From: an uncultured virus (IMG/VR IMGVR_UViG_2690315925_000005)
Lineage: Duplodnaviria; Heunggongvirae; Uroviricota; Caudoviricetes
DNA length: 64,000 nt
Reading direction: 5' to 3' (one strand)
IMG/VR virus record: IMGVR_UViG_2690315925_000005
The translations under genes and the position numbers were made by a program. Under the pieces are notes generated by a model. It did no database searches and was not told the origin of the DNA. It saw only the letters and a program-made list of their open reading frames with translations. Below are positions 39,414 through 52,786 of the stretch, piece after piece (the stretch's first letter is position 1; every line of letters starts with the position of its first letter).

Positions 39414-39845
39414 TCAGTCTCCGAAGTCCGGCGTGTAGGCGTACGAAGGCTGTTGATAGAGCCAGCTGGCGTCGAACGTGAATCCTTCTTCTTTGCCCTG
39501 ATTGATTGGGTACATCGTGTCATGGACAGCTGCGAGCAGCGCATCAAGGATCGTGTTCGCTCCGTCATTACCAGGGTATGGATGCTGCATGTTAGGTGCC
39601 TTGGCATGGACGCTACGAGCCATGCGGTACCTATTTGTAGAGATCTTTGAGGGCCAGATTTTCACGCGCAGATCAAACTGCGCCCCGCCACCAGCATTCA
39701 GCCTCAGAACGTATTCCCAGGCCACACGACCCTTGGTGATTCCAGCCTTCGAATCGAGATCTGTTTCGATGAAGCTCGCAGCGGCTCGAAGCGCCTCTTC
39801 GGCCGTCACAATGTTCCCGCTCAAGTCAAAAAACTGTCCCGTCAC
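39414..39845 (-). CDS. Accessory hypothetical protein
   Basis: AAGGAG SD, GTG start, lower GC. Confidence 0.7.
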   Translation of the reverse strand: MTGQFFDLSGNIVTAEEALRAAASFIETDLDSKAGITKGRVAWEYVLRLNAGGGAQFDLRVKIWPSKISTNRYRMARSVHAKAPNMQHPYPGNDGANTILDALLAAVHDTMYPINQGKEEGFTFDASWLYQQPSYAYTPDFGD

Positions 39846-39928
39846 TGCTGCTCCTTTTCCCGGCCGAGATGGCCCTAACAAACCTTAACAAATGTGATAA
39901 TCCCGGCCAATACAGGGAGGGTGTTGCA

Positions 39929-40501
39929 ATGGTTGAGACCGTACTAGGCTTGACAGATCTACAGATCAAGTTGGTCACTGCAGCGGGGCAGCTGGCGCTG
40001 GCCGCGATGGTTGCGTATGTGGCATGGCAGCAGTGGCGCACGGCGCGCAACAAGCTCAAGGCAGACCTCTTTGATCGTCGTTTGGCTCTGATGAAATCAC
40101 TGCAGGCATGCGCCGACAAAACGTATCTCGACAATCTCACCGATGCAGAGCTGGCGGCACTACCAGGGCTGGCGAAAGAGGCTGGGTATCTTTTCGGGAA
40201 GCCGGTGCGTACCGCTGCCTATGGGCTAAGTGAGGCGCTGCATGCGCGACACCGAAGCAAAGTGGCAATCGTCGAGGCCAGGGCTCTGCTCCGCACTCAG
40301 TGGGACGCTCTCGGTTTCATGTCAGCATTGCCACATGATCGGATAAGCAATGAGGTCGAGCTCCTTGAGACGCGAATTGCTGAGACAGAGTCTAGGATCA
40401 AGGCACACGAGAATGAACTGATCACCACCACAGGCGCGCTTTCGGGGTTGCTAATCACGCTGCAGATTGCGGCCTCTGATGCGCTTACGTTGAAGCATTA
40501 A
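39929..40501 (+). CDS. Membrane-anchored moron protein
   Basis: TM then AWQQWRTARNKLKADLFDRR; GGAGG SD; extended -10 TGTGATAAT at 39893. Confidence 0.8.
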   Translation: MVETVLGLTDLQIKLVTAAGQLALAAMVAYVAWQQWRTARNKLKADLFDRRLALMKSLQACADKTYLDNLTDAELAALPGLAKEAGYLFGKPVRTAAYGLSEALHARHRSKVAIVEARALLRTQWDALGFMSALPHDRISNEVELLETRIAETESRIKAHENELITTTGALSGLLITLQIAASDALTLKH

Positions 40502-40504
40502 CTG

Positions 40505-41479
40505 CTAGGGATGCCGGCCAGCTGCATCGCACTCTTCCGCGCGGTCACGCAAGGGCTGACCGAACCACAGCGCCTTCCGAAACCCCTTCCTGCCACCGTG
40601 AAGCGCTTCATGCAGGACTGCACTGGCACACTTGTGCGCCTTGATGTAGTTGCCCTTGCGCATCTTCGCGGACTTGGCCAAGCCGGCGAACGGCTGCCGC
40701 CGTTCTGGCCAAACCAGTTCATGGGCTGCGTCATAGATCACCAGGCGAAGGCGCCACCGATCGGCCGGCTTTCCGAGATCCAGCGGCCGCGGGCGCATTG
40801 CGCGCACGTCCTTGGCCACCTGCCGGTAGGCAGCAAGGGATAGCCTAGCGATCGCCGCTGGGCCCATGCGCGTCGCCACCGCGAGGGCGGTGTGCTTCTC
40901 GAGTGGGTTGCGCATGTAGCCGACCGCGCCGGCGATGTCGCTGCTCCCCAGCGGCGCCAATGTGCTGCGCCCCTCAACTGGCATGCGGTAGCTCCCGCCG
41001 ACCAGCAGTCGCGACAGCAGCTCCAGGACGTCGCCCTTGCCCTCGTCGTCGAATCCATCCGGAGCTGCGCCCCGGCGCCGCTTGCCTGCACTGTCGTCGC
41101 CCGCCGTAGCAAGCACCGGCGCACGTCGACACCAGGCATCCAGCGCCGCGGCAAGAGCGCCGGCGGGATCCGGACCAACGAACACGGCTGAGGATGCCCC
41201 GCAGCTGCAGCACTGGATCTGTGCGCCCCTCGGGAACAGACCAGTCGGGGCGGTACCACAGCGGCCACACTGGACCGGCGCGCTGATGTCGAAGATGGCT
41301 CCACGTGGCCCGCAGTGCCGGCACTGGAGCTGTACCAGCTGCGACTCGCGGCCAGGCCAGCACACCCTCGCCTTGCCGTTGCAGTTGGCGCAGGAGGGGA
41401 TCTTCTTCCCCTTGAGGAAAGCCACCTCGAGGTCGCGCGCGGCTGCGAGCGCGTTGGTACCGACTGCAGTTTCGTTCAT
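40505..41479 (-). CDS. Putative late-gene regulator (four CxxC motifs plus Q-like C-terminal domain)
   Basis: Last gene of the cro operon before the late promoter region; DIAGAVG motif and C-terminal HTH-like segment. Confidence 0.55.
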   Translation of the reverse strand: MNETAVGTNALAAARDLEVAFLKGKKIPSCANCNGKARVCWPGRESQLVQLQCRHCGPRGAIFDISAPVQCGRCGTAPTGLFPRGAQIQCCSCGASSAVFVGPDPAGALAAALDAWCRRAPVLATAGDDSAGKRRRGAAPDGFDDEGKGDVLELLSRLLVGGSYRMPVEGRSTLAPLGSSDIAGAVGYMRNPLEKHTALAVATRMGPAAIARLSLAAYRQVAKDVRAMRPRPLDLGKPADRWRLRLVIYDAAHELVWPERRQPFAGLAKSAKMRKGNYIKAHKCASAVLHEALHGGRKGFRKALWFGQPLRDRAEECDAAGRHP

Positions 41480-42303
41480 GACGTCTGTTCCTGGGTCTTC
41501 TTTGCTGCCGCTGCAGCGCGCGCGGCGCGCGCCTGGGCCAGTACCTGAGCGTAGGCCTCGGGGTGCTGGTCCTCGAAAGCCGGGAGTCTCCCGCGCGCCC
41601 ACATCCCCTCGCCCAGTTGCCTCAGCCACCCATCGGAAGCACAGAAGCGGCGCGGATCCACGCCATGGGCCCGGACACCCTTCGCCGTCGTGAAACCATC
41701 GAGCTCGAGATCGGCCAACACCTTGAGAGCGCCCACCTTCCAGGGAGTCAACTGCAGCGGCGCCGGCACGCCCGCGGCAACTTTCGGCACAAACTCAGGC
41801 AATTCACAGCGCTTGGTTGGGTTCCAGTCGAACCATGCTGTAGGTCCCCACTCGCGGAGATCGCCGGATGCGCGATCCCATGGGGCGGCCTGATGCAGGC
41901 CATGCCGATGCACCTCGCGCTGAACCTGCTGCCCAGGCTCCGTCTTCCAACGGGCAGTACAGCTGTCCGGGACCAGAACCTGCACGCCCAGCGCATCGAG
42001 CATCCGTGCAATGCCGTAGTTCGCCGCTGTCGTGCACGGAACCAGCACCGCCCTGAAGTCTGGCCCCCGCTGGTCGCCGTTGCTCCAGTGCGCCGGCAGG
42101 ATCTGATCGGCCACTTTGGCGTTGAGCTGCAGCTTCGCCTCGATGCCGAGCTGATGCCCAGTCGCCTTCCACACAGCCAGAATGTCGAAGCCGGCTGTCT
42201 CGGGGTAGATCTCCCAGCCGCCGGCCTCGGTCAGACAGTCGATCAGGCACGTGCACAGGGCAGCCTCCGTCGGGAACCGCGCCTTGAGCTCTGCAGGCTT
42301 CAT
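41476..42303 (-). CDS. PD-(D/E)xK-like hypothetical protein
   Basis: YPETAGFDILAV..GIEAKL. Confidence 0.6.
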   Translation of the reverse strand: MKPAELKARFPTEAALCTCLIDCLTEAGGWEIYPETAGFDILAVWKATGHQLGIEAKLQLNAKVADQILPAHWSNGDQRGPDFRAVLVPCTTAANYGIARMLDALGVQVLVPDSCTARWKTEPGQQVQREVHRHGLHQAAPWDRASGDLREWGPTAWFDWNPTKRCELPEFVPKVAAGVPAPLQLTPWKVGALKVLADLELDGFTTAKGVRAHGVDPRRFCASDGWLRQLGEGMWARGRLPAFEDQHPEAYAQVLAQARAARAAAAAKKTQEQTS

Positions 42304-44300: not shown

Positions 44301-45192
44301 GGTCGGTCCCCTCGGGTTTCGGTGTTACGGGCAGTGCCAGGCCTGCAGCCATCGTCTGGCGCAGGGAGCGGTTGAGGTCGTGGCCATCGGCCGTGAGCTG
44401 GCGGAATCGCGGCTGCAGCTCCAGCCAGCTGCTGATCGTCATCGGCTTTCCCAGCACACGGCGATGACGCACGAACCTGGCCAGGACTTGCGGGTCCAGA
44501 CCCGCCGGCAAACGTGGGATGCCCATCAGCTCGCGATTGACCTCGTCGGCGGTGAGCTGCGGCATCGCCGCATCGTCGTCGCGCGCCTGCGCGTTTGACG
44601 ATTCAATGACCTTTACTGACCTTTCATGACCTTTAGGGTCCGTCTCGCGGACCGGTTGAGTACGCGAGACGGACCGGTCAGGTCCGCCAGACGTACCGGT
44701 CGAGTTCGCGAGACGCACCGGTCGTTCTTGCGTACCGGTATCTCCCGCGTACCGGTCGGCGCCTTCAGTCTCTTCCGACCCGTCCGTGACGCGCACCGGT
44801 TCGGCATCCACACCGGTACTCGTGGCGGACCGGTCAACCCCTTCGCCGCTCTCGGACCGGTCCGTCTGGCGCACCGGTTTGGACGCGCGCCGCGGCTTCG
44901 ATGCGAACACTTCGGGGTCCAGGCGGCCAAGGTTGAGGCTGTACCGGTTGCTGTACTTGGTGCCGCCGGCATCACTGCCGCCACGTCGAATGGTCAGCAC
45001 CTGGTTGTCTTCCAGCCACGCGATCGCGCTGAGCAGTGCTGTCTTGCTCAGGCAGGTCTTCTCGATCAATGTGGTGAAGCCCGGGAAAGCCATTCCGAAG
45101 TCGTCTGCGTGCCACGCGATCGCCATCAGCACCGCCTTTGCGGGCGGCGGCATCTGCAGTGGCCAGCAGAGCTTCGTGATTTCGTTGCTCAT
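44146..45192 (-). CDS. Replication initiator (O-like, N-terminal HTH)
   Basis: AKAVLMAIAWHADDFG.AFPG..L; internal iteron array. Confidence 0.8.
   Translation of the reverse strand: MSNEITKLCWPLQMPPPAKAVLMAIAWHADDFGMAFPGFTTLIEKTCLSKTALLSAIAWLEDNQVLTIRRGGSDAGGTKYSNRYSLNLGRLDPEVFASKPRRASKPVRQTDRSESGEGVDRSATSTGVDAEPVRVTDGSEETEGADRYAGDTGTQERPVRLANSTGTSGGPDRSVSRTQPVRETDPKGHERSVKVIESSNAQARDDDAAMPQLTADEVNRELMGIPRLPAGLDPQVLARFVRHRRVLGKPMTISSWLELQPRFRQLTADGHDLNRSLRQTMAAGLALPVTPKPEGTDHANNSGSAAERVRRRAEEDELRDAAAEADAAAGAAGALDGPGYANAVGAHG
44651..44878. repeat. Iteron array, probable phage origin
   Basis: 11 perfect ACCGGT plus one ACCCGT at 17/22/27-bp spacing. Confidence 0.8.
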
Positions 45193-45209
45193 TACGCAGG
45201 CCTATCCCG

Positions 45210-45734
45210 TTACGGGCAGCCCACCACGACGACGGGGTTTGCCCTGCCAGGCGCGCTCCATTCGTTGGGGCTGCTGAACTGCGCGCGACCCTGTCCATGG
45301 ACGACACCCTGGCGCGGCTCCGGCGCGGGCGTGCTGAGGCGTTCTAACTGGCTCGCAACGCGCTCGGAGGCAGCCGCGCATTGCGCCTGCACGTCGAGCA
45401 GCTGCTGCATCAACGCCTGCCGGCGATGCTCGGTGGGAATGGGACGGACCTCATAGCCGAGATCTGCGGCCATGGCCAGGAAGAGCTGGTGCCGGCCAAA
45501 GCGGCGCATCAGCGCCCACAGCTCACCGATCTTGAAGAACTCGGCCTTGTTGGGGTTGAGGCAGCTGTTGAACTTGGCCACAGCGCTGGCCCAGTCCTTC
45601 AGCTTCTCCTGATCCCAGAAGCCGTTGTCCAGCAGGAACTGGATCATTTCATTGCGGGTATGGGCATCGACGTCGCAGGTGGCCTTCAGGGCCGCCAGGG
45701 CGTCCTGCAGCCAGGTTTCTTCGATCCAGGGCAT
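45210..45734 (-). CDS. CII-like regulatory protein
   Basis: GAGGA SD; NSCLNPNKAEFFKIGELWALM..LFLAMAADLGYE; lies between cro region and O-like gene. Confidence 0.6.
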   Translation of the reverse strand: MPWIEETWLQDALAALKATCDVDAHTRNEMIQFLLDNGFWDQEKLKDWASAVAKFNSCLNPNKAEFFKIGELWALMRRFGRHQLFLAMAADLGYEVRPIPTEHRRQALMQQLLDVQAQCAAASERVASQLERLSTPAPEPRQGVVHGQGRAQFSSPNEWSAPGRANPVVVVGCP

Positions 45735-45815
45735 GGGAGTCCTCGGGGTTTGGGCGGGTCCTCCGGCTGGCAGAATGGCGGTGCGACCCAACCCAACCAC
45801 CACCTGGAGAGACCC

Positions 45816-46136
45816 ATGGATGCAATTGCGGAACTGGAACTGCGGCAGCTGCTGGCGGGCTGCCAGGCTCAAATCAAGGCGTTGCACGAGCAACTGGAAA
45901 TCACCGCCGGCAGTGCACTGGCGACAAACGTCGCCCTGCATGGGCTCATTTCGGTCCTTCCAGATCTCGACCTCGCAGGAAGAGCGCTCGCAACCGTGCG
46001 ACGAGACTTCGAAGGCGCATCGGACCCCGCGACCGCTGAGCGGGCGATGTCGTTCGAGGCGACTTTTGACAACCTGCAGAAGACCATCGAGAACCGGAAG
46101 GCCGTGCTGGCGCGTCAGGCTCAATCTCTCCGCTGA
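45816..46136 (+). CDS. Antisense cassette gene A1 (106 aa, helical)
   Basis: Motif CCTCCGGCTGGCAGAAT at 45760, CCAACCAC leader, GGAGA SD. Confidence 0.75.
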   Translation: MDAIAELELRQLLAGCQAQIKALHEQLEITAGSALATNVALHGLISVLPDLDLAGRALATVRRDFEGASDPATAERAMSFEATFDNLQKTIENRKAVLARQAQSLR

Positions 46137-46215
46137 AGCAGAAGCCCGGCCGCTGCTCGGCGGCCGGGTGATCTACGCCGGCGGCGAAGCTCGGCTTTTC
46201 AGATTCGTCAGTCAT
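45946..46215 (-). CDS. Lytic-strand partner ORF B1
   Basis: GGAG SD; ATGA-coupled at both ends; 191-nt 3' overlap with A1. Confidence 0.5.
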   Translation of the reverse strand: MTDESEKPSFAAGVDHPAAEQRPGFCFSGEIEPDAPARPSGSRWSSAGCQKSPRTTSPAQRSRGPMRLRSLVARLRALFLRGRDLEGPK

Positions 46216-46296
46216 TCAGCGCTCCGTAGGTGCTGGGTACGCATCTGTGTTGGTCGGCTGGCAGAATCGGCGTTCCCCCAGTAATTGACGTTCCTC

Positions 46297-46638
46297 ATGA
46301 CCCCATCCGAACTCGAAGCCCGATTCGCCCAATACGACGAACGAATCGCCGCGTTGGAGGCTGAAAAACAGGCGAACAGCTGGTTCACGCTGGCCGTCAT
46401 TGGCAGTCATCCCGACACAGAGATGCTGCTGGAGGTAGTTCGCGCCGCCATCCAAACACTGCGCGGCAAAACCTCGCCCGAAGCCCCGGCCGGCGTGGCC
46501 GCTGCAACCGTGCTTCGCCTGTTGGAGATCGAGCGTCAGATCCTGAAGGCGCAGCAGAGCCGACAGGAGCTGGCGGAAGCGGCGGAGGCGGAGCGGCTGT
46601 TGGAACAGCAACGCGCTGGATCTGAGCAGGAACACTAG
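46297..46638 (+). CDS. Antisense cassette gene A2 (113 aa, helical)
   Basis: Motif TCGGCTGGCAGAAT at 46254; protein-like composition; weak SD. Confidence 0.7.
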   Translation: MTPSELEARFAQYDERIAALEAEKQANSWFTLAVIGSHPDTEMLLEVVRAAIQTLRGKTSPEAPAGVAAATVLRLLEIERQILKAQQSRQELAEAAEAERLLEQQRAGSEQEH

Positions 46639-46747
46639 AAGCTGGCTGCCGCTGCTCCAGCGCGCGCACCCGGCGCTCAAGCGCGCCGATGCGCTGCAGC
46701 GCCGCGGTCATGACCGTCGGAGTCGATTGGGGCAGGCCCTTAGTCAT
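46397..46747 (-). CDS. Lytic-strand partner ORF B2
   Basis: AAAGGAG SD; coiled coil RIGALERRVRALEQ; 242-nt overlap with A2. Confidence 0.6.
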   Translation of the reverse strand: MTKGLPQSTPTVMTAALQRIGALERRVRALEQRQPASSVPAQIQRVAVPTAAPPPPLPPAPVGSAAPSGSDARSPTGEARLQRPRRPGLRARFCRAVFGWRRELPPAASLCRDDCQ

Positions 46748-46843
46748 GGGCGACTCCTTTCTCCACAACCGATGCTGGCAGTGGCGGCGATCTCCGGGCA
46801 GGCTTGGTGGTACCACCCAACCACACCAACCACGGAGATCACC

Positions 46844-47197
46844 ATGGAAGCGAGCACTCGCTTGGACACCCTCGAGAGGGCCGTTATCGCGCTGCAGACC
46901 CAGAACTCGCAGATCGTTGCTTCTTTGACGGACGTCACCGAAGCCATCAACATCGCGTTCAAGGACCTGTACCTGAGCGAGCAGAAGAAGGACGGCATGT
47001 GGGCTGCCCAGCGCGCCATCATCGAGTCCCTCCTGGCGCACGCCGACGCAGCCACGCGTCAATATGCGCAAGCAAAGCTGCAAGTCGCATACGAGGTGTG
47101 GGACGCGAAGAACCGGGATCCCGAATTCCTTGAAGAGTTTGCGGCGGCCGCGCGTTCAGTATTTCCTGACATTCGGCTAGAGCCCGCCGCTGAGTAA
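46844..47197 (+). CDS. Antisense cassette gene A3 (117 aa, helical)
   Basis: Motif CTCCGGGCAGGCT at 46792, CCAACCAC twice, GGAGA SD. Confidence 0.75.
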   Translation: MEASTRLDTLERAVIALQTQNSQIVASLTDVTEAINIAFKDLYLSEQKKDGMWAAQRAIIESLLAHADAATRQYAQAKLQVAYEVWDAKNRDPEFLEEFAAAARSVFPDIRLEPAAE

Positions 47198-47408
47198 GCA
47201 GCTGCAAACCCTGGTCTTCCAGTGCCGCGATGCCTGCATGGACTTGGGCCATCGCGGTGTCAAACGGCTCGGTGTCGAATTGTTGGTAGAACGCGACCTG
47301 GGCCTCCAGCTCGCGGACCCTCTGCCGCAGCGCGCGCAGCTCCCTGCGATCCCGGCCGTGGCCTCGATCCTCCCCTTCGCGAGGATTGCTGAGGTGTCGA
47401 CGGGCCAT
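47019..47408 (-). CDS. Lytic-strand partner ORF B3
   Basis: GGAG SD; coiled coil ELRALRQRVRELEAQ; 179-nt overlap with A3. Confidence 0.6.
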   Translation of the reverse strand: MARRHLSNPREGEDRGHGRDRRELRALRQRVRELEAQVAFYQQFDTEPFDTAMAQVHAGIAALEDQGLQLLTQRRALAECQEILNARPPQTLQGIRDPGSSRPTPRMRLAALLAHIDAWLRRRAPGGTR

Positions 47409-47489
47409 CAGCATTTACTCCAAGAGGCGGCGCCCTCCGGCTGGTAGGCTGGGATTTCCACACCACCAACCACGAACCGGAGAAGCGCC

Positions 47490-47867
47490 ATGGCATTGCC
47501 AGCTGACGTCCGCATAGACCAGCTGCACGAACTGCTGGGGGAACAGGAAAAGCAGCGCGAAGCGCTGAACATTCGAATCCACGACCTAGAGCGGATCCAA
47601 GCCGACCACGCAAAAGTCATCGAGCGACTGGTGTGGCTTTTGGATGGCGCGCGTGGAAAGACTGCGGTAATGGAAACCGTCATCCCTCTTCTCCTGGAAT
47701 CAAGCGATCAACGGACCCGGGATCGCGTACAGACGGCGCTGGAGCTGCGCTGGCGCCAGGACCGAGCTCTGGGCGCAGGTGCGACTCCCCGCTATGAGGC
47801 GAAGTTCGAGAAAGCAGCTCTCGAAGTTGCCCCGCAAGCATCGCTTCCCCGACAGCACAGTCGCTGA
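47490..47867 (+). CDS. Antisense cassette gene A4 (125 aa, helical)
   Basis: Motif CCTCCGGCTGGTAGGCT at 47434, CCAACCAC leader, GGAGA SD. Confidence 0.75.
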   Translation: MALPADVRIDQLHELLGEQEKQREALNIRIHDLERIQADHAKVIERLVWLLDGARGKTAVMETVIPLLLESSDQRTRDRVQTALELRWRQDRALGAGATPRYEAKFEKAALEVAPQASLPRQHSR

Positions 47868-48114
47868 TACCTGCAAGCGACTGGTCAAAGCGTTGCTGGG
47901 AAGCGGTGATTTCCTCCGACAGGCGAGTCCTGTCCGCCGCCTCGCGCTGCGCTCGAGCGCGGATGCGGGCAAGGACGGCCTGGTGGCGCTCCTCTGCCGC
48001 GGCTGTTTCCATTACGGTCTGCTTGTTCAGCCAGTTGCGGAGCCAGACCCGGGGGTTGAGGCGATCCGGAAGGTGCAGGGGCCAACGGCTGCCCCGAGGG
48101 GTCTCAGCGACCAT
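47680..48114 (-). CDS. Lytic-strand partner ORF B4
   Basis: GGAGG SD; helical N-terminal half; 188-nt overlap with A4. Confidence 0.6.
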   Translation of the reverse strand: MVAETPRGSRWPLHLPDRLNPRVWLRNWLNKQTVMETAAAEERHQAVLARIRARAQREAADRTRLSEEITASQQRFDQSLAGISDCAVGEAMLAGQLRELLSRTSPHSGESHLRPELGPGASAAPAPSVRDPGSVDRLIPGEEG

Positions 48115-48192
48115 AGCGGCCTCCCCACGTATGCCCAGCAATGGCTACCATTGGCCGTGCGGAATCCACCGCACAGTTCAAGGAACGTCGAA

Positions 48193-48333
48193 ATGGCAAA
48201 GAACGAACAGACCGGCAAGAAGGTCGCAACCACTGCGTCCAAGCTGTTGAGCAATCCGAGCTCATCGAAGGCAGTGAAGTCGGTCGCGGCATCCGCGCTG
48301 ACCCAGGCCCCGAACAAGCCGAAGAAGAAGTAA
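48193..48333 (+). CDS. Antisense cassette gene A5, 46-aa basic protein
   Basis: MAKNEQTGKKVATTASKLLSNPSSSKAVKSVAASALTQAPNKPKKK; AAGGA SD; TACCAT -10 at 48146. Confidence 0.7.
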   Translation: MAKNEQTGKKVATTASKLLSNPSSSKAVKSVAASALTQAPNKPKKK

Positions 48334-48339
48334 TCAGCG

Positions 48340-48630
48340 TCATTCCAAGGCCCTCAGCGCAATGAGGGCCTTGGTCGGAATCGTCATAGCGCCGCAGCGC
48401 TGAGGTTCCTTTTCCCTGGACCAGCTACCAGCCACCACCACCGCCTCGGCCGATGCAGCGACCAGCAGACCTGCCGACCGGCAGGCCAGCGGCGAGGCAT
48501 CCACGTCGCCGTGATGCCACCCATCGGCCCGGTGGGAGTCCACCCAGTCGGCCAAGACGACCCGCCCAACGAGAGCCTGATGCCCGTTGAGCTCCCCATC
48601 CTGAGGATTGGCAAGGCTTCGCGTGTCCAT
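48340..48630 (-). CDS. Phage hypothetical protein
   Basis: DWVDSH..GW..CRSAGLL..TIP; TGATG-coupled to cro. Confidence 0.7.
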   Translation of the reverse strand: MDTRSLANPQDGELNGHQALVGRVVLADWVDSHRADGWHHGDVDASPLACRSAGLLVAASAEAVVVAGSWSREKEPQRCGAMTIPTKALIALRALE

Positions 48631-48950
48631 CAGGCTGTCTCCAGCGGCACGATGCGGCCGGCGTCCACATCGCCGCTCGGTTCGGCGCGCCGTTCCATAA
48701 CCGGATCCATAACCGGATCCGCCTGCGCCACCACTTCGGCCAGGCCGCCCCGCTCCAGGCCCTCGAAAGCGTTCAGCGCCTCGATCAGCTGCTGAAGGCT
48801 GGCAATCGTCGGATTCGTGATCTGCCCGTGCGCCAGCTTCGTCAGCCACGAATAGCCGATGTCCGGGCTCTGCCGGGCGATCTCGGCGTACTTCCCTTCA
48901 TGCGCACGCAGGCGCACCACGGTTTGATGCAAGAGGGTATCGGCGTCCAT
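48630..48950 (-). CDS. Cro-like HTH regulator
   Basis: YAEIARQ..IGYSWLTKLAHGQITNPTIASLQQL; divergent from repressor. Confidence 0.8.
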   Translation of the reverse strand: MDADTLLHQTVVRLRAHEGKYAEIARQSPDIGYSWLTKLAHGQITNPTIASLQQLIEALNAFEGLERGGLAEVVAQADPVMDPVMERRAEPSGDVDAGRIVPLETA

Positions 48951-48956
48951 GACACC

Positions 48957-49016
48957 AACCTATCATTCTAATGCTAGGCAATCAAGCATCGAAGAGCGTT
49001 CAGCCATCACTAGCAT
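48957..49016. promoter_or_regulatory. Divergent pR/pRM-like promoters with operator
   Basis: Minus strand TTGATT-N17-TAGGTT; plus strand TCGAAG-N16-TAGCAT; operator TATCA-N6-TGCT at 48961. Confidence 0.7.
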
Positions 49017-49023
49017 GGTAGGT

Positions 49024-49413
49024 ATGGCTAAACGTCCCTCGAGTGCAGATGTCATCGCCGCCAATGTGCGCCGATTGATGAAGCACCTGAACCTCTCGCA
49101 GGCCGAACTCGGCCGCAAAGCCGGGGTTGCGCAAACTCTCCTGTCGGGGCTCCTGAGCCCGGACGGCGCCTCCAAGAACCCGACATCTTCGACCGTCGAC
49201 AAGCTTGCCGACGCTTTCAAAATCACCCCTTGGAAGCTGCTGGTTCAGGACATCACGCTGGACAACCTCATGGACGAGGAAATCGAGCGCCTGGTGGACG
49301 CTTTCGCCACCGTGCCAGCAGAGGGGCGCCGAACAATTCTGCGGGTGGCGGATGCTGAAGTTCGCTATGCCCAGGTTCCCGCGACCGTTCCGATCAAGAA
49401 CACAGGGACATGA
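49024..49413 (+). CDS. CI-like XRE repressor without S24 peptidase domain
   Basis: NVRRLMKHLNLSQAELGRKAGVAQTLLS..NPTSSTVDKLADAF. Confidence 0.85.
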   Translation: MAKRPSSADVIAANVRRLMKHLNLSQAELGRKAGVAQTLLSGLLSPDGASKNPTSSTVDKLADAFKITPWKLLVQDITLDNLMDEEIERLVDAFATVPAEGRRTILRVADAEVRYAQVPATVPIKNTGT

Positions 49414-49419
49414 GCAGCC

Positions 49420-49764
49420 ATGGGAATACTCGACTTTCTTGGCAGTGCGGCGGGCGTTGTGACAATGCAGACGGGCGCGGATGTGTTCATCCATCGTCAT
49501 ACACGCGTGGTTACCTTCAACCTTCCATCCCATTGGCGTGACCACGCCAACAAGCTCGTCAAAGAACGCTTTCAACAGCAGCTCGTTCAGTCCGAATTTG
49601 ATGCGGCACTGCTGAAACTCGCAGTGTTCTGGACCTGCGCTATGCAAAGTGACCGAGTCCGCGCCGAGCACTTCGCCGACGCCATGTTTGACCTACGCAC
49701 CGCGGCAGGCGGCCAGATCACGCCCGGTCTGTCCCTCGAAGTGATGCGGCTGACCAACCACTAA
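49420..49764 (+). CDS. Hypothetical protein co-transcribed with repressor
   Basis: 114 aa, starts 6 bp after cI stop. Confidence 0.65.
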   Translation: MGILDFLGSAAGVVTMQTGADVFIHRHTRVVTFNLPSHWRDHANKLVKERFQQQLVQSEFDAALLKLAVFWTCAMQSDRVRAEHFADAMFDLRTAAGGQITPGLSLEVMRLTNH

Positions 49765-49805
49765 AGCTCGATCAATCAGCTGCTTAGCATCACATCACAT
49801 CAATC

Positions 49806-49851
49806 TATCATTTTAGTGCTTGACTGACGGATGATCTATCACTATGTTGCT
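49806..49851 (+). promoter_or_regulatory. pL-like promoter with two operators
   Basis: TTGACT-N17-TATGTT (49820-49848); TATCA-N6-TGCT at 49806 and 49837. Confidence 0.8.
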
Positions 49852-49880
49852 AGCCATCCCAAGCACGGATGGTTGAGCAC

Positions 49881-50372
49881 ATGTCTGCACTGTCTTCGTC
49901 GCTGTACCTGGCACTGGGGGCTCTCGGGGCCACCGGCCTTGGCGCACTCTTCTCCCCATCGTCCCCTTCCACAGACGAACCCGGCCAGGCCGTCCGGGCA
50001 CCAGCTGCACTGGTGATCACCAGCCCGCGCATCTGCGCGGCGCTGGAGGTCTATACCCTGGCCAGCGAGAACGACTGGGGCCTGCGCACCACCATTGCCC
50101 AGGCGATGCTCAACGGCTTCAACGACACCGGCCGTGTGCCGGACTGCGCCGCCGGCGTGTCCGCCGCGCTGGCCAAGGACTTCTCTCCCTACCGCTGGCA
50201 GCTTGCGCTCGATGCCGTCGACGCGGTTGTCGCCGGCACCTACTCCGTTTCCCCCGACGCGTGCGCCCGGGCCAATACCGTCGTCCCCCTGTCGACGGAA
50301 AAAGCCACCTCCCCCGTGGTGGCCCGGGCGCGGTGCGTCATCTATGACCTGGCTTTCGTGGAGGTGCACTGA
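49881..50372 (+). CDS. Exported SleB/Hydrolase_2-like protein, possibly inactive
   Basis: Signal/anchor; CAALEVYTLASE..TIAQAMLN resembles CLA..IY.EARGE..AVA.V.LNR. Confidence 0.5.
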   Translation: MSALSSSLYLALGALGATGLGALFSPSSPSTDEPGQAVRAPAALVITSPRICAALEVYTLASENDWGLRTTIAQAMLNGFNDTGRVPDCAAGVSAALAKDFSPYRWQLALDAVDAVVAGTYSVSPDACARANTVVPLSTEKATSPVVARARCVIYDLAFVEVH

Positions 50373-50803
50373 TGGCCGCCACCGAACGTCACTGCCGCGT
50401 CTGCAGCTGCACTGAGCTGCAGGCCTGCCCCGGTGGTTGCTCCTGGGCCGGGGCCGACCTTTGCAGCAGCTGCGCCGCAGCTGCAGGCCCTAACGCCGAA
50501 GGCGCCATGGCGGTCGTCGCGCGCCAGCGCCTGCTGATCGCCGGCAAGGCCATCAAGCTGAGCCGCACCGAGGCCGTCGTGATGAAGGCCCTTGTCGCGA
50601 CCCCCGATCGCCTCGTGGAAATCGATGCGCTGCATGCGGCGATGTACCCAGACAGCAAGCCGCCGTCGCGCGAGTCCAACGTCCTTCAGGTGCTGGTCTC
50701 GCGCGTGCGCCGCAAGCTCTCAGCTGCTGGCCATAAGCACGCAATCGAGACCATCCGCCTGCGCGGCTACCGCTTCGTGATGCCCCAAGGCGGTGCTGCA
50801 TGA
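50372..50803 (+). CDS. Cys-rich domain plus OmpR-type winged-helix protein
   Basis: CRVCSCT..C..GCSW..CSSC; LSRTE..NVLQVLVSRVRRKL..IETIRLRGYRF. Confidence 0.8.
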   Translation: MAATERHCRVCSCTELQACPGGCSWAGADLCSSCAAAAGPNAEGAMAVVARQRLLIAGKAIKLSRTEAVVMKALVATPDRLVEIDALHAAMYPDSKPPSRESNVLQVLVSRVRRKLSAAGHKHAIETIRLRGYRFVMPQGGAA

Positions 50804-51099
50804 GCGCCCAAGTTGAATTCACCGCCAAATGCTTCGGCGCGAACCTCGGCCTCACCCGAAATCCTGACGGAAGCTGGTGCATGTCGCTCTACACCTTCGT
50901 CGGCAAGAACAGGAATCACCGCGGAATTGCCTTCGCAACCGCGGTCCCCGGCCAGCTGCCGCGAGTGGATCCGGCTGACGGCGATACCTTTCCCTCTGCA
51001 GCCCTGTGGGTCGGGTCGGCATCCTTCGACATACCCGATGCCCTGGTGCCGAAGCTGCAGGCCTTCCTCGCCGAACACGCCCAAGGCGGTGCCGCATGA
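50800..51099 (+). CDS. Phage hypothetical protein
   Basis: ATGA-coupled. Confidence 0.65.
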   Translation: MSAQVEFTAKCFGANLGLTRNPDGSWCMSLYTFVGKNRNHRGIAFATAVPGQLPRVDPADGDTFPSAALWVGSASFDIPDALVPKLQAFLAEHAQGGAA

Positions 51100-51224
51100 G
51101 GACGGAAGAGATCATTGCGGAGGCCACCGCCGTGCTGTTCCGGCGAGTCCTGGCCATCGGCGGCGCGGCGGGCTTCGTGCTGGGTGTCGTGGCAACGCTT
51201 GGATCCCGGGCGGTGCTGTCATGA
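51096..51224 (+). CDS. Small membrane peptide (42 aa)
   Basis: ATGA-coupled both sides, one TM. Confidence 0.55.
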   Translation: MRTEEIIAEATAVLFRRVLAIGGAAGFVLGVVATLGSRAVLS

Positions 51225-51469
51225 ACTCGGTGACCATGACCGTCGACGCGGAGATCGACCTCGATGACCTGGTCGGGAATCTGGGCTCCGCCAGCAAGGA
51301 CTACCTTGCCCGCCTCCTGAAGGTTGAAGGCGAGACCGCGCGCGCCCCTGACGGCCGCACCTTCGAGCAGATCATCGAAGCCGCCTTCTACGAGGCGCGC
51401 GCCATGTCCCCCGTGCCGCCGGCACTGGCCGACCTGCTCTGGGTAGTGCACGGGAGGGCGATGTCATGA
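51221..51469 (+). CDS. Phage hypothetical protein
   Basis: ATGA-coupled. Confidence 0.6.
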   Translation: MNSVTMTVDAEIDLDDLVGNLGSASKDYLARLLKVEGETARAPDGRTFEQIIEAAFYEARAMSPVPPALADLLWVVHGRAMS

Positions 51470-51729
51470 CGACAGACCTGCACCTCCTAGGCCATGGCGT
51501 CGACGCCATCGTGCAGCACGACCTGGACCGCATGCCGCCGGCGATCACTGCCGCAGCGCGCGTGCAGCGCTACCAGCGCGCGGTGTGTATCGCACCACCG
51601 GACCAGTGGCGCGCGCTGCGGATCCGCTTCGGCTCGATCTTCCAGATCGCCTGGAGCGCAGGACTGAAGCCGGACCTGGCCACCTGGGCCCGGAAGTTCC
51701 AGCGCATCGCCGAGGCCTGCCGACCATGA
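51466..51729 (+). CDS. Phage hypothetical protein
   Basis: ATGA-coupled, GGAGG SD. Confidence 0.6.
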   Translation: MTTDLHLLGHGVDAIVQHDLDRMPPAITAAARVQRYQRAVCIAPPDQWRALRIRFGSIFQIAWSAGLKPDLATWARKFQRIAEACRP

Positions 51730-51884
51730 GGCTCTTCCACGTCCACATCCCGGGCGTGGCCAGACCGCACAGCGTCAACGCCGAATCCGAATCGGCCGCG
51801 ATCGACGACGCGCTCTACACCCTGGGCCTTTCCGAGCTGCCCGAAGGCAGCAGCGTCACTTCTGAACAGACCGGAGACACCTGA
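51726..51884 (+). CDS. Small phage hypothetical protein
   Basis: ATGA/TGATG-coupled. Confidence 0.55.
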   Translation: MRLFHVHIPGVARPHSVNAESESAAIDDALYTLGLSELPEGSSVTSEQTGDT

Positions 51885-52786
51885 TGTTCTTCCGCAACCT
51901 CACGATGTTCACCTATCCGCAGCTGCAGATGTTCGACTGGCAGGACGGCCTGCAGGCGAGCGCCCTGAAACCGGTAGGCCCGCTGGAAATGTGCTCCGCC
52001 GGCTTCATTTCGCCATTCGGCCGCGAAGAGAAGGAGCTGCTGTCGCACGAGATCGGCCGCTGCGTGTGGATGGCCATCGGCGCCGAAGACAAGATCCTGC
52101 CGCCGGCCGTGGTGAGCAACCTGCTCGAACTCAAGCTGCTGGAGATCGAAGAAAAAGAGGGGCGCCGCCCCGGCGGCCGCGAGCGGAAGCGCATCAAGGA
52201 CGATCTGCTGCACGAGCTGCTGCCGCGGGCCTTCATCCGCCCTACCCGCACGGATCTCTACCTGGACCACCAGCGCGGTGTCGTGTTCGTCGACACCAGC
52301 AGCCGCAAGACCGGCGAGAGCGCCATGAGCCAGTTGCGCAACGTGGTCGGTAGCTTCCCCGCCCTCCCCCTGAACGCTGAGGTGTCGCCGCGGGCGATCT
52401 TGACCGGCTGGCTCGCCGGCGAGTCCTTGCCCGAAGGCCTCAGCCTGGGCGAGGAATGCGAGCTTCGCGACCCGGTCGAAGGCGGCGCCATCGTCCGCTG
52501 CCAGCACCACGAACTGCGCTGCGACGAGGTCGATCTCCACCTGGAGACCGGCAAGCAGGTCACCAAGCTCGCCCTGGTGCTGGAGGACCACCTGTCCTTC
52601 GTTCTTGGCGACGACCTGATCGTCCGAAAGCTCCGCTTCTTGGACGGTGCCGTCGAGCAGCTGCAGTACGGGGACGAAGACGGCCGGCGCGCCGAGCTCG
52701 ATGCCCGCTTCGCTCTGCAGATCGCCGAGGTCGGCCGGCTGTACGACCTGGTCCGCGAGCAATTCCACCTCACCACCTACGCCTGA
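51884..52786 (+). CDS. rdgC: Recombination-associated protein RdgC
   Basis: MFFRNLTMF..EDKILP..ELLPRAF..GKQVTKLAL. Confidence 0.92.
   Translation: MFFRNLTMFTYPQLQMFDWQDGLQASALKPVGPLEMCSAGFISPFGREEKELLSHEIGRCVWMAIGAEDKILPPAVVSNLLELKLLEIEEKEGRRPGGRERKRIKDDLLHELLPRAFIRPTRTDLYLDHQRGVVFVDTSSRKTGESAMSQLRNVVGSFPALPLNAEVSPRAILTGWLAGESLPEGLSLGEECELRDPVEGGAIVRCQHHELRCDEVDLHLETGKQVTKLALVLEDHLSFVLGDDLIVRKLRFLDGAVEQLQYGDEDGRRAELDARFALQIAEVGRLYDLVREQFHLTTYA

Follow-up and report, generated by a model that had tools for sequence, protein, structure and literature searches.

Between the cro-like and the cII-like gene of a Stenotrophomonas prophage recorded as an uncultured virus (IMG/VR record IMGVR_UViG_2690315925_000005), a chain of coupled open reading frames (ORFs) on the cro strand crosses five genes that are read in the opposite direction. 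The window analysed here is the whole stretch of 64,000 nucleotides from this record. From the frames used, the codon at which each antisense gene is crossed, and the dependence of both on genomic context, it appears that the path is probably, though by no means certainly, under selection for uninterrupted cro-strand translation across the antisense genes. A preceding sequence-only reading of the window had proposed a gap-free relay of ORFs from cro to cII, whose linkers are selected for being translated rather than for their product. The junctions of the chain stood up to analysis, as did the lack of constraint on the linkers, while the last link to cII did not.

Coupled reading frames on the cro strand

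All twelve minus-strand ORFs of the chain are open at the positions given in Table 1. ATG and TGA delimit eleven of them, and the twelfth begins with TTG at 45872 in frame with cII. Nine of the eleven junctions are of the type in which the stop overlaps the next start, ATGA (48343, 47683, 47022, 46747, 46400, 46215, and 45949) or TGATG (48630 and 47408), all with ATG starts. The remaining two are an 11-nt overlap at 48114 and TTGA at 45872. As originally described, the linkers from 47683, 47022, and 46400 stop exactly on the next start.

The alternate ORFs m3sh, m5sh, m7sh, m9sh, and m11 had been called shadow-like, and their composition agrees: judged by it, they are junk, since Ser, Arg, Cys, and Trp (S+R+C+W) make up 0.29-0.41 of their residues compared to 0.11-0.25 in cro, cII, m2, m4, m6, m8, and p1-p5. 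The only non-alternate ORF overlapping the linker range is m10 (0.29). Real coding on the cro strand comprises cro, m2, and the N-terminal parts of m4, m6, and m8, which show coding-like composition, conserved N-termini, and ratios of nonsynonymous to synonymous change (pN/pS) of 0.17-0.73. Homologues of the m6 N-terminus are found directly behind cro in four related loci (L002, L008, L018, L022), and the N-terminus of m8 is conserved among homologues while its tail is not. On the opposite strand, the five antisense genes p1-p5 proved to be real according to phrog and NCBI records, pN/pS, GC content by codon position, and predicted fold. Since only these parts are genes, the 2.9-kb interval between cro and cII can be described as five cassettes, each consisting of a short cro-strand m gene and a convergent p gene on the cI strand.

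Tightness of the chain in comparison to shuffled sequences

A link was considered strict if it was ATGA or TGATG with an ATG start, and loose if the overlap was up to 20 nt or the gap up to 10 nt. Searching both strands of the window for chains of at least seven strict ATG links yielded this one and two ordinary operons, 49869-52786 on the plus and 43899-40505 on the minus strand; all other chains had at most three links. Between cro and cII, the coupling is confined to one strand, p1-p5 being without a coupled follower on the plus strand even by the loose rule.

Synonymous shuffling of p1-p5, a check suggested along with the original proposal, produced the full chain (overlap of at most 11 nt, any start) in 1 of 5000 cases, and a repeat with the p genes of the window in 0 of 2000. 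Under the loose rule, a chain arose in 337 of 5000 shuffles. The unusual feature is therefore the tightness of the links and not the existence of some path. Multiplied together, the shuffle values for linker openness in the window alone come to about 0.002. When genes of related loci were treated in the same way, strict ATG chains reaching the observed extent were obtained per 2000 shuffles 0 times for L010, 4 for L018, 11 for L035, 18 for L009, 22 for L030, 89 for L011, and 244 for L036; the result for L022 was not significant. That the shuffles constitute a fair null was seen in 36 control genes with 12,426 codons, where the number of antisense stops divided by the shuffled mean was 1.00, 0.88, and 0.98, frame by frame.

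The junction codon depends on the genomic context

The m tail stops and the linker starts opposite a (Leu/Val/Ile)-Ile pair of the p protein, encoded as NTC-AT and thus reading ATGA on the opposite strand. This applies to 15 of the 16 motif variants in the arrays. The sequence-only reading had cautioned that NTC-ATY codon pairs are common in GC-rich genes, making ATGA by chance more likely. This caveat was put to the test: CTC accounts for only 20% of the Leu codons in p genes, and homologues outside this context have other codons than NTC at the site. Counted by families with Leu/Val-Ile, NTC is present at the junction in 13 of 15 behind cro and in 0 of 8 elsewhere (Fisher p 9e-5); p-family members outside cro operons use CTG, TTG, or ATG before Ile. 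The frame of the tails follows the same pattern, with no stop in 1161 codons of 17 genes behind cro compared to 37 stops in 2005 codons of 30 sequences elsewhere (Fisher 7.5e-8).

Among 49 hits across the p family, the TCAT junction occurs only in L079, L090, L111, and L115. No other members lie antisense directly behind a Cro-like gene of another family, and the Cro-like genes of these four belong to Pfam HTH_3, Pfam P22_Cro, phrog_6831, and phrog_25161 (with a weak match to phrog_6831). In all four, the p gene is crossed by a tail ORF, ATGA at the motif, and a linker, and the linkers reach the following gene (TTGA, GTGA) or fall 75-90 nt short of it.

Tails and linkers show no constraint at the protein level

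In m4, pN/pS was 0.26-0.60 in the non-overlapping part and 0.99-1.40 in the tail; for the stretch shared with p4, the value was 0.13-0.39 in the p4 frame. The linker m3sh gave 1.93 in its own frame and 4.84 over the p5 span, compared to 0.27 for p5. Purifying selection in both frames was thus seen neither in the p4/m4 nor in the p5/m3sh overlap. The linker m5sh is open in L005, L006, and L007; no conclusion can be drawn from its pN/pS (0.21-0.32), since it shares its third codon positions with p4. The m tails cannot be aligned between homologues despite conserved N-termini. Exact sequences of four linkers, including m3sh and m7sh, were looked up in a collection of 15 billion proteins, and none was present. 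To judge from these comparisons, the linker products are under no protein-level selection.

Tail frames that are always open in context could also mean that the m proteins need long C-terminal tails, for example disordered basic extensions, and that only the short linkers are accidental. Gene calls in sequence assemblies fit this idea, since Logan assemblies carry gene calls for full-length m4 and m6, and ENA for m6 as well, and so does the C-terminus of m8-type proteins, which is always DDCQ or EDCQ. This terminus, however, is the mirror of the IGSHP motif in p2. Dual coding is quite unlikely for further reasons: the pN/pS values of the tails and their failure to align where N-termini are conserved argue against it, the synonymous rate of p4 is not reduced in the overlap (0.17/0.36/0.36 versus 0.25/0.36/0.46), and ATGA, the open linkers, and the ends on the next start would be left unexplained.

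Conservation of the chain in related loci

Searches anchored in cro detected 31 loci. Together with the window, 32 sequences were available, representing 22 spacer architectures of 0.7-2.9 kb; the relatives are Stenotrophomonas prophages and one locus from a Thermomonas genome bin. A second scan of viral sequences with a Cro alignment returned the same contigs plus one, and a metagenome scan with this alignment only one uninformative fragment of 1.6 kb. The L009 genome is unpublished and essential to no conclusion.

The architectures are built of shuffled cassettes, each of which may be present or absent. It had been suggested to check if related prophages with different cargo keep the chain, and they do: an ATG chain (overlap of at most 11 nt) spans 0.83 or more of the cro-cII distance in 27 of the 32 sequences and 0.73-0.77 in the other five. 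In 23 representatives, 53 of 106 links are ATGA and 41 TGATG. The last stop is located between -49 and +35 nt from the ATG of cII in 8 of the 23.

A 42-nt repeat named D2 (71% identical) is present at 47370-47411 and 48592-48633. It contains the end of the upstream ORF, TGATG, and the first approximately 13 codons of m6 and m2, respectively, encoding M-x-x-R-x-L-x-N-P-x-x-G-E. Because mosaic breakpoints in the relatives fall into D2, it looks like a recombination boundary for cassette swaps that leave the coupling intact.

A proposed path for ribosomes across the antisense genes

The transcript starting with cro must traverse each p gene backwards. According to the interpretation favoured here, a ribosome finishing one ORF would stand on the start of the next, ATGA or TGATG. 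Opposite the 3' half of the p gene, the m frame extends as a tail under no constraint and stops on the conserved Leu/Val/Ile-Ile pair, where NTC-AT provides ATGA on the opposite strand. From there, a junk ORF leads out through the 5' half and the 5' untranslated region (UTR) hairpin of the p gene and stops where the following m gene begins. In this way, ribosomes would cover the early-right message over about 1.5 kb of antisense RNA that is otherwise non-coding. That linkers are selected for translation and not for their product, as originally proposed, agrees with the lack of protein constraint and with their being open and coupled in relatives as well as in four unrelated immunity regions; the translation itself, and any benefit from it, we infer.

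The benefit could be protection from Rho-dependent polarity, perhaps also from decay, so that cII, O, and P would still be expressed. The hand-on of ribosomes to the m genes would be a second possible advantage. In lambda, the Rho-dependent terminator tR1 is located between cro and cII, and this location is one reason to regard Rho protection as the most likely benefit. The other reason is provided by reviews: translation shields rut sites, lost translation gives polarity, Rho suppresses antisense transcription inside genes, and tR1 RNA serves as the prototype Rho substrate (PMC12360218).

A number of observations weigh against selection for such a path. Loose chains are frequent by chance (6-50% of shuffles). 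The probability of crossing a single cassette is 0.09-0.25, each crossing being only mildly improbable alone, and the signal therefore resides in the conjunction of cassettes. Since the cassettes are paralogous, counts are not fully independent. The frames used by the chain contain 2.66 and 2.12 stops per 100 codons, compared to 0.41 in the codon-aligned frame that is not used, which counts against a simple design argument. The tail frame is free of stops in 13 of 30 out-of-context homologues. Stops in the linker frame number 3 in 504 codons behind cro and 13 in 887 elsewhere; since this frame is stop-poor in all family members, the linker half of the path costs nothing. A second p-like gene in L090 is not crossed, showing a TTG-ATT junction and five stops in the tail frame. 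The junctions with a stop on a start lie in or beside the p 5' UTR hairpin, whose conservation has reasons of its own, and the m genes as well as cII carry their own Shine-Dalgarno (SD) sequences. Finally, the C/G ratio of the cro-strand RNA is 0.87-1.14, without the marked excess of C over G that is the signature of rut sites.

Further points against the relay concern its end. The ATG-only chain of the window stops at 45869, 134 nt before the ATG of cII. The last stop falls 134-212 nt short of cII in 11 of the 23 representatives, including the window, and 436-550 nt short in four. A full chain with any start and overlaps of at most 11 nt is found only in the window and a near-identical copy (2 of 32). 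The TTGA link into an extended cII has no SD sequence and no counterpart in the relatives, and is regarded as fortuitous. Of the gap-free chain from cro to cII, the junctions down to 45869 are thus retained, whereas the final link is a weak one; in 15 of 23 representatives, 134-550 nt remain uncovered. Complete coverage up to cII is not supported.

Several of these observations could indicate that the chain is simply a by-product of the p motif (Leu/Val/Ile-Ile-x-Ser/Thr-His-Pro), the hairpin beside the m starts, and open antisense frames at the GC content of the window (approximately 64%), spread by duplication and shuffling of cassettes. The junction lies at the same motif in all paralogues, and the m-to-p spacer is the most conserved stretch of the region, with 3-4 changes in 81 nt; the stop-poor linker frame, the open tail frame in some out-of-context homologues, and the frequency of loose chains point in the same direction. 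This explanation is nevertheless unlikely. Homologues with the same motif outside the cro operon never have NTC, stops in the tail frame occur only in homologues elsewhere, shuffling of seven diverged loci seldom gave a strict chain, and the same path is found behind four unrelated Cro types.

The p genes and their 5' UTR hairpins

A single diverse family, encoding helical proteins of 70-130 aa, includes p1-p4 and the majority of the antisense genes in related loci. Its members share the motif hydrophobic-(Leu/Val/Ile)-Ile-x-(Ser/Thr)-His-Pro, more fully (L/V/I)-I-x-(S/T)-H-P-(D/N)-P, and amino acid identity inside the family is only 12-37%. The p2 model shows three helices, with the conserved Ser-His-Pro at the first helix break. 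A profile of the family matched in 52 of 300 genomes of the host's family; 49 ORF hits were analysed, most of them located among host genes such as those for a TonB receptor, DUF72, cupins, HemN, an extracytoplasmic function sigma factor, a sulfate permease, AraC, or LysR. Searches for a function returned nothing above threshold in Pfam, E values of at least 0.48 with PDB sequences, a best E value of 0.42 with Foldseek against PDB, and only unnamed clusters in the ESM Atlas (scores of 0.88-0.89).

Hairpin elements were detected 24 times in L008-L037 and also in L083 and L079. In all 24 folded p 5' UTRs, the SD sequence GGAG is paired, the minimum free energies ranging from -21 to -40 kcal/mol (mean z, -3.4). 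The outer stems vary between subfamilies and remain complementary, the loop is CA-rich, and in one subfamily 90% of cells pair compared to 36-50% in slid controls; the evidence consists of single-sequence folds and the count in this subfamily of 10 rows. Since the hairpin is also present before p-family genes outside phages (L083), it belongs to the p gene. The spacer between an m start and the following p start, which encodes the hairpin, measures 82 nt in three pairs. An assignment of the spacer motif to sigma-54 or a lambda CII box was rejected because the spacing, inspected by eye, is wrong. Possibly, the hairpin is a translational operator or a conditional entry site for Rho on the cI-strand transcript.

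On the cro strand, the complement of the hairpin, with folding energies of -30 to -49 kcal/mol, forms part of the linker ORFs. Translation of the cro strand across p could therefore set antisense pairing with p mRNA or unfold this complement, coupling p to the lytic or lysogenic state. Such a control intrinsic to the cassette would fit the SD-occluding hairpin at each p gene, the path accompanying the p gene into four other immunity regions, and the location of p genes on the cI strand, where the PRE transcript of lambda runs. In 11 of 23 representatives, however, the chain does not extend over the hairpin nearest to cII, and we consider this control unlikely as the cause of the path. It is not exclusive of selection for uninterrupted translation; both can hold. 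In a wider scheme, put forward tentatively and rather unlikely to hold, a p gene and its two crossing frames would constitute an "operon-transparent" mobile cassette carrying its own path for through-translation. Its CA-rich, SD-occluding 5' UTR would expose the cI-strand transcript to Rho unless p is translated, and Rho would gate the two convergent transcripts oppositely, feeding into the choice between lysis and lysogeny.

A hairpin of another kind is located at 46145-46168, just past the p1 stop and inside m10. It has nine GC pairs and, on the minus strand, a weakly T-rich tail, and could represent the end of p1 transcripts or a pause site for the cro-strand polymerase.

Gene map of the immunity region

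The assignment to a lambdoid immunity region was borne out by PHROG and Pfam matches of the window genes (Table 1). Farther along, the plus strand harbors genes for an exonuclease and an integrase, and the minus strand one for an endolysin. That no N-like antiterminator was recognised, as originally remarked, holds to the extent that 0 of 23 early or late ORFs matched a PHROG labelled as antiterminator; nine of the 23 had no match at all, and nut sites were not searched. No match was obtained by megablast of 45200-49500 against 50,697 phage records or with Rfam over 45000-50000, and a simple scan detected no sigma-70-like promoter on either strand in 45000-48900. Of RNA runs, 24 were listed, all with small shares; reads of four, mapped at 88% likeness, gave two hits in one run and none in three, and are uninformative on expression.

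Two further genes were recorded. An early-left gene on the plus strand (50372-50803), within the coupled chain 49869-52786, encodes a protein with a Cys-rich N-terminus (phrog_731, E 4.1e-10; weak phrog_31800). Its C-terminal part appeared winged-helix-like by eye. The other, at 39869-40501 on the plus strand, specifies 210 aa with a hydrophobic segment, is lower in GC (0.57), and lies between the minus-strand genes 40505-41629 and 39414-39881. It is crossed by no ATG-coupled chain and is possibly a moron at an operon boundary. Its use as a negative control was dropped, since a shared transcript of the flanking genes is uncertain.

Table 1. Genes, linkers, and hairpins of the region between the P-like and the cI-like gene (HTH, helix-turn-helix; GC1/2/3, GC content at codon positions 1, 2, and 3; pLDDT, predicted local distance difference test)
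Feature	Position	Strand	Remarks
cI-like HTH repressor	48949..49413	+	PF01381 E 4e-7; phrog_8, phrog_3; divergent from cro, on the same strand as p1-p5
cro-like gene, chain head	48630..48950	-	phrog_9425 E 9.6e-5; GC1/2/3 0.73/0.44/0.80; pN/pS 0.17 vs. L007
m2, real short gene	48340..48630	-	TGATG-coupled to cro; pN/pS 0.31; first ~13 codons repeat those of m6 (D2)
m3sh linker, 79 aa	48104..48343	-	antisense through p5; ATGA start; 11-nt overlap with m4 start; S+R+C+W 0.41
p5, 46 aa, small basic	48193..48333	+	phrog_5079 E 1.4e-11; pN/pS 0.27
m4	47680..48114	-	real N-terminal part ~48114-47868 and 62-codon tail antisense to p4 3' half; ATGA stop
p4, 125 aa	47490..47867	+	pN/pS 0.13-0.39 in own frame; NCBI hypothetical protein, S. 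maltophilia, including K279a
p4 5' UTR hairpin	47429..47489	+	pairs SD GGAG; CA-rich loop (CCAACCAC)
m5sh linker, 91 aa	47408..47683	-	antisense through p4 5' half and 5' UTR hairpin; TGATG end on m6 start; S+R+C+W 0.41
m6	47019..47408	-	real N-terminal part (GC by codon position) and tail antisense to p3 3' end
p3, 117 aa	46844..47197	+	GC2 0.30, GC3 0.88 at 46880; homologues 53-54% identical in L002, L003
Like hairpin before p3	~46786-46843	+	
m7sh linker, 92 aa	46744..47022	-	antisense through p3; ATGA end on m8 start
m8	46397..46747	-	conserved N-terminal ~40 aa and 80-codon tail antisense to p2; ATGA stop at p2 Val34-Ile35
p2, 113 aa	46297..46638	+	motif LAVIGSHP; 'hypothetical protein' in NCBI S. 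maltophilia records; AlphaFold2 pLDDT 90.8
m9sh linker, 62 aa	46212..46400	-	antisense through p2 5' part; ATGA end on m10 start
m10, 89 aa	45946..46215	-	enters p1 3' half; ATGA stop
p1, 106 aa	45816..46136	+	chain junction at Leu44-Ile45
Like hairpin before p1	~45756-45815	+	
m11 linker, 26 aa	45869..45949	-	
TTG-started in-frame cII extension	45735..45872	-	without SD; weakest link
cII-like activator	45210..45734	-	phrog_101 E 1.5e-10, PF06892; own SD GAGGA; ATG 45734, stop codon ends 45210
O-like gene	45192-44146	-	
P-like gene	44300-43599	-	

Implications and relation to known systems

If the favoured interpretation is true, the choice of synonymous codons in a gene would depend on a requirement for translation of the other strand, irrespective of what is encoded there, which would be a new kind of constraint on genes embedded in antisense orientation. 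It would explain how phages can stack backward cargo in an essential operon without polarity, and would offer a testable case for the amount of bare RNA tolerated by an operon, since mutations silent on one strand make stops on the other. For annotators, the chain is a warning that length and tight coupling do not make an ORF a gene. The analysis also reveals an uncharacterised, widespread family of helical proteins of Xanthomonadaceae with a conserved regulatory 5' UTR.

The operon site is that of lambda tR1, where untranslated RNA likewise invites Rho and N antitermination acts. In this phage, an N-like protein was found among none of the 23 ORFs scanned, and the interval, 0.7-2.9 kb in the window and its relatives, is occupied by genes, with ORFs extending over nearly all of it.

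The mechanism itself is ordinary termination-reinitiation coupling, and both an ORF existing solely to pass on ribosomes and a coupled mobile insert are already in print (PMC12548453). There, short ORFs are said to be able to exist solely to drive downstream translation, and the mycobacterial interspersed repetitive unit (MIRU) is described as a mobile insert with an ORF coupled at -4 nt to the downstream gene, non-polar and with an irrelevant product. The same junctions, -4 or -1 nt, are arranged here in series on one strand, as they are in the neighbouring real operons. Here, however, about half of the coupled ORFs are non-genes that run antisense through real genes without protein constraint. 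The cassettes resemble MIRU in being inserted mobile sequences with a coupled ORF whose product, to judge from the substitution ratios, does not matter. Cassettes are present or absent among the 22 architectures, with breakpoints at D2, and the coupling is preserved in most relatives and behind four other Cro types. Whereas MIRU is a short non-coding repeat, the insert here is a protein gene in opposite orientation with a regulatory 5' UTR, and it is crossed by two ORFs in two frames that switch at a conserved codon pair. Within the listings and abstracts considered, there was no multi-step path that crosses opposite-strand genes, switches frame on a conserved codon pair, and moves between immunity regions.

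In noncontiguous operons and excludons, an operon is likewise interrupted by, and read through, a gene on the opposite strand (PMC7154746, PMC11034616), as cro and cII are separated by p1-p5. The abstracts of these papers do not mention translation of the antisense stretch, and a single transcript is presumed here. A further related system is the control of Rho by leader peptides and upstream ORFs, where translation of an ORF without a useful product also decides on Rho loading (PMC12121999, PMC12360218). Those are single regulatory switches in 5' leaders, whereas the chain between cro and cII would be a constitutive path of many steps inside an operon.

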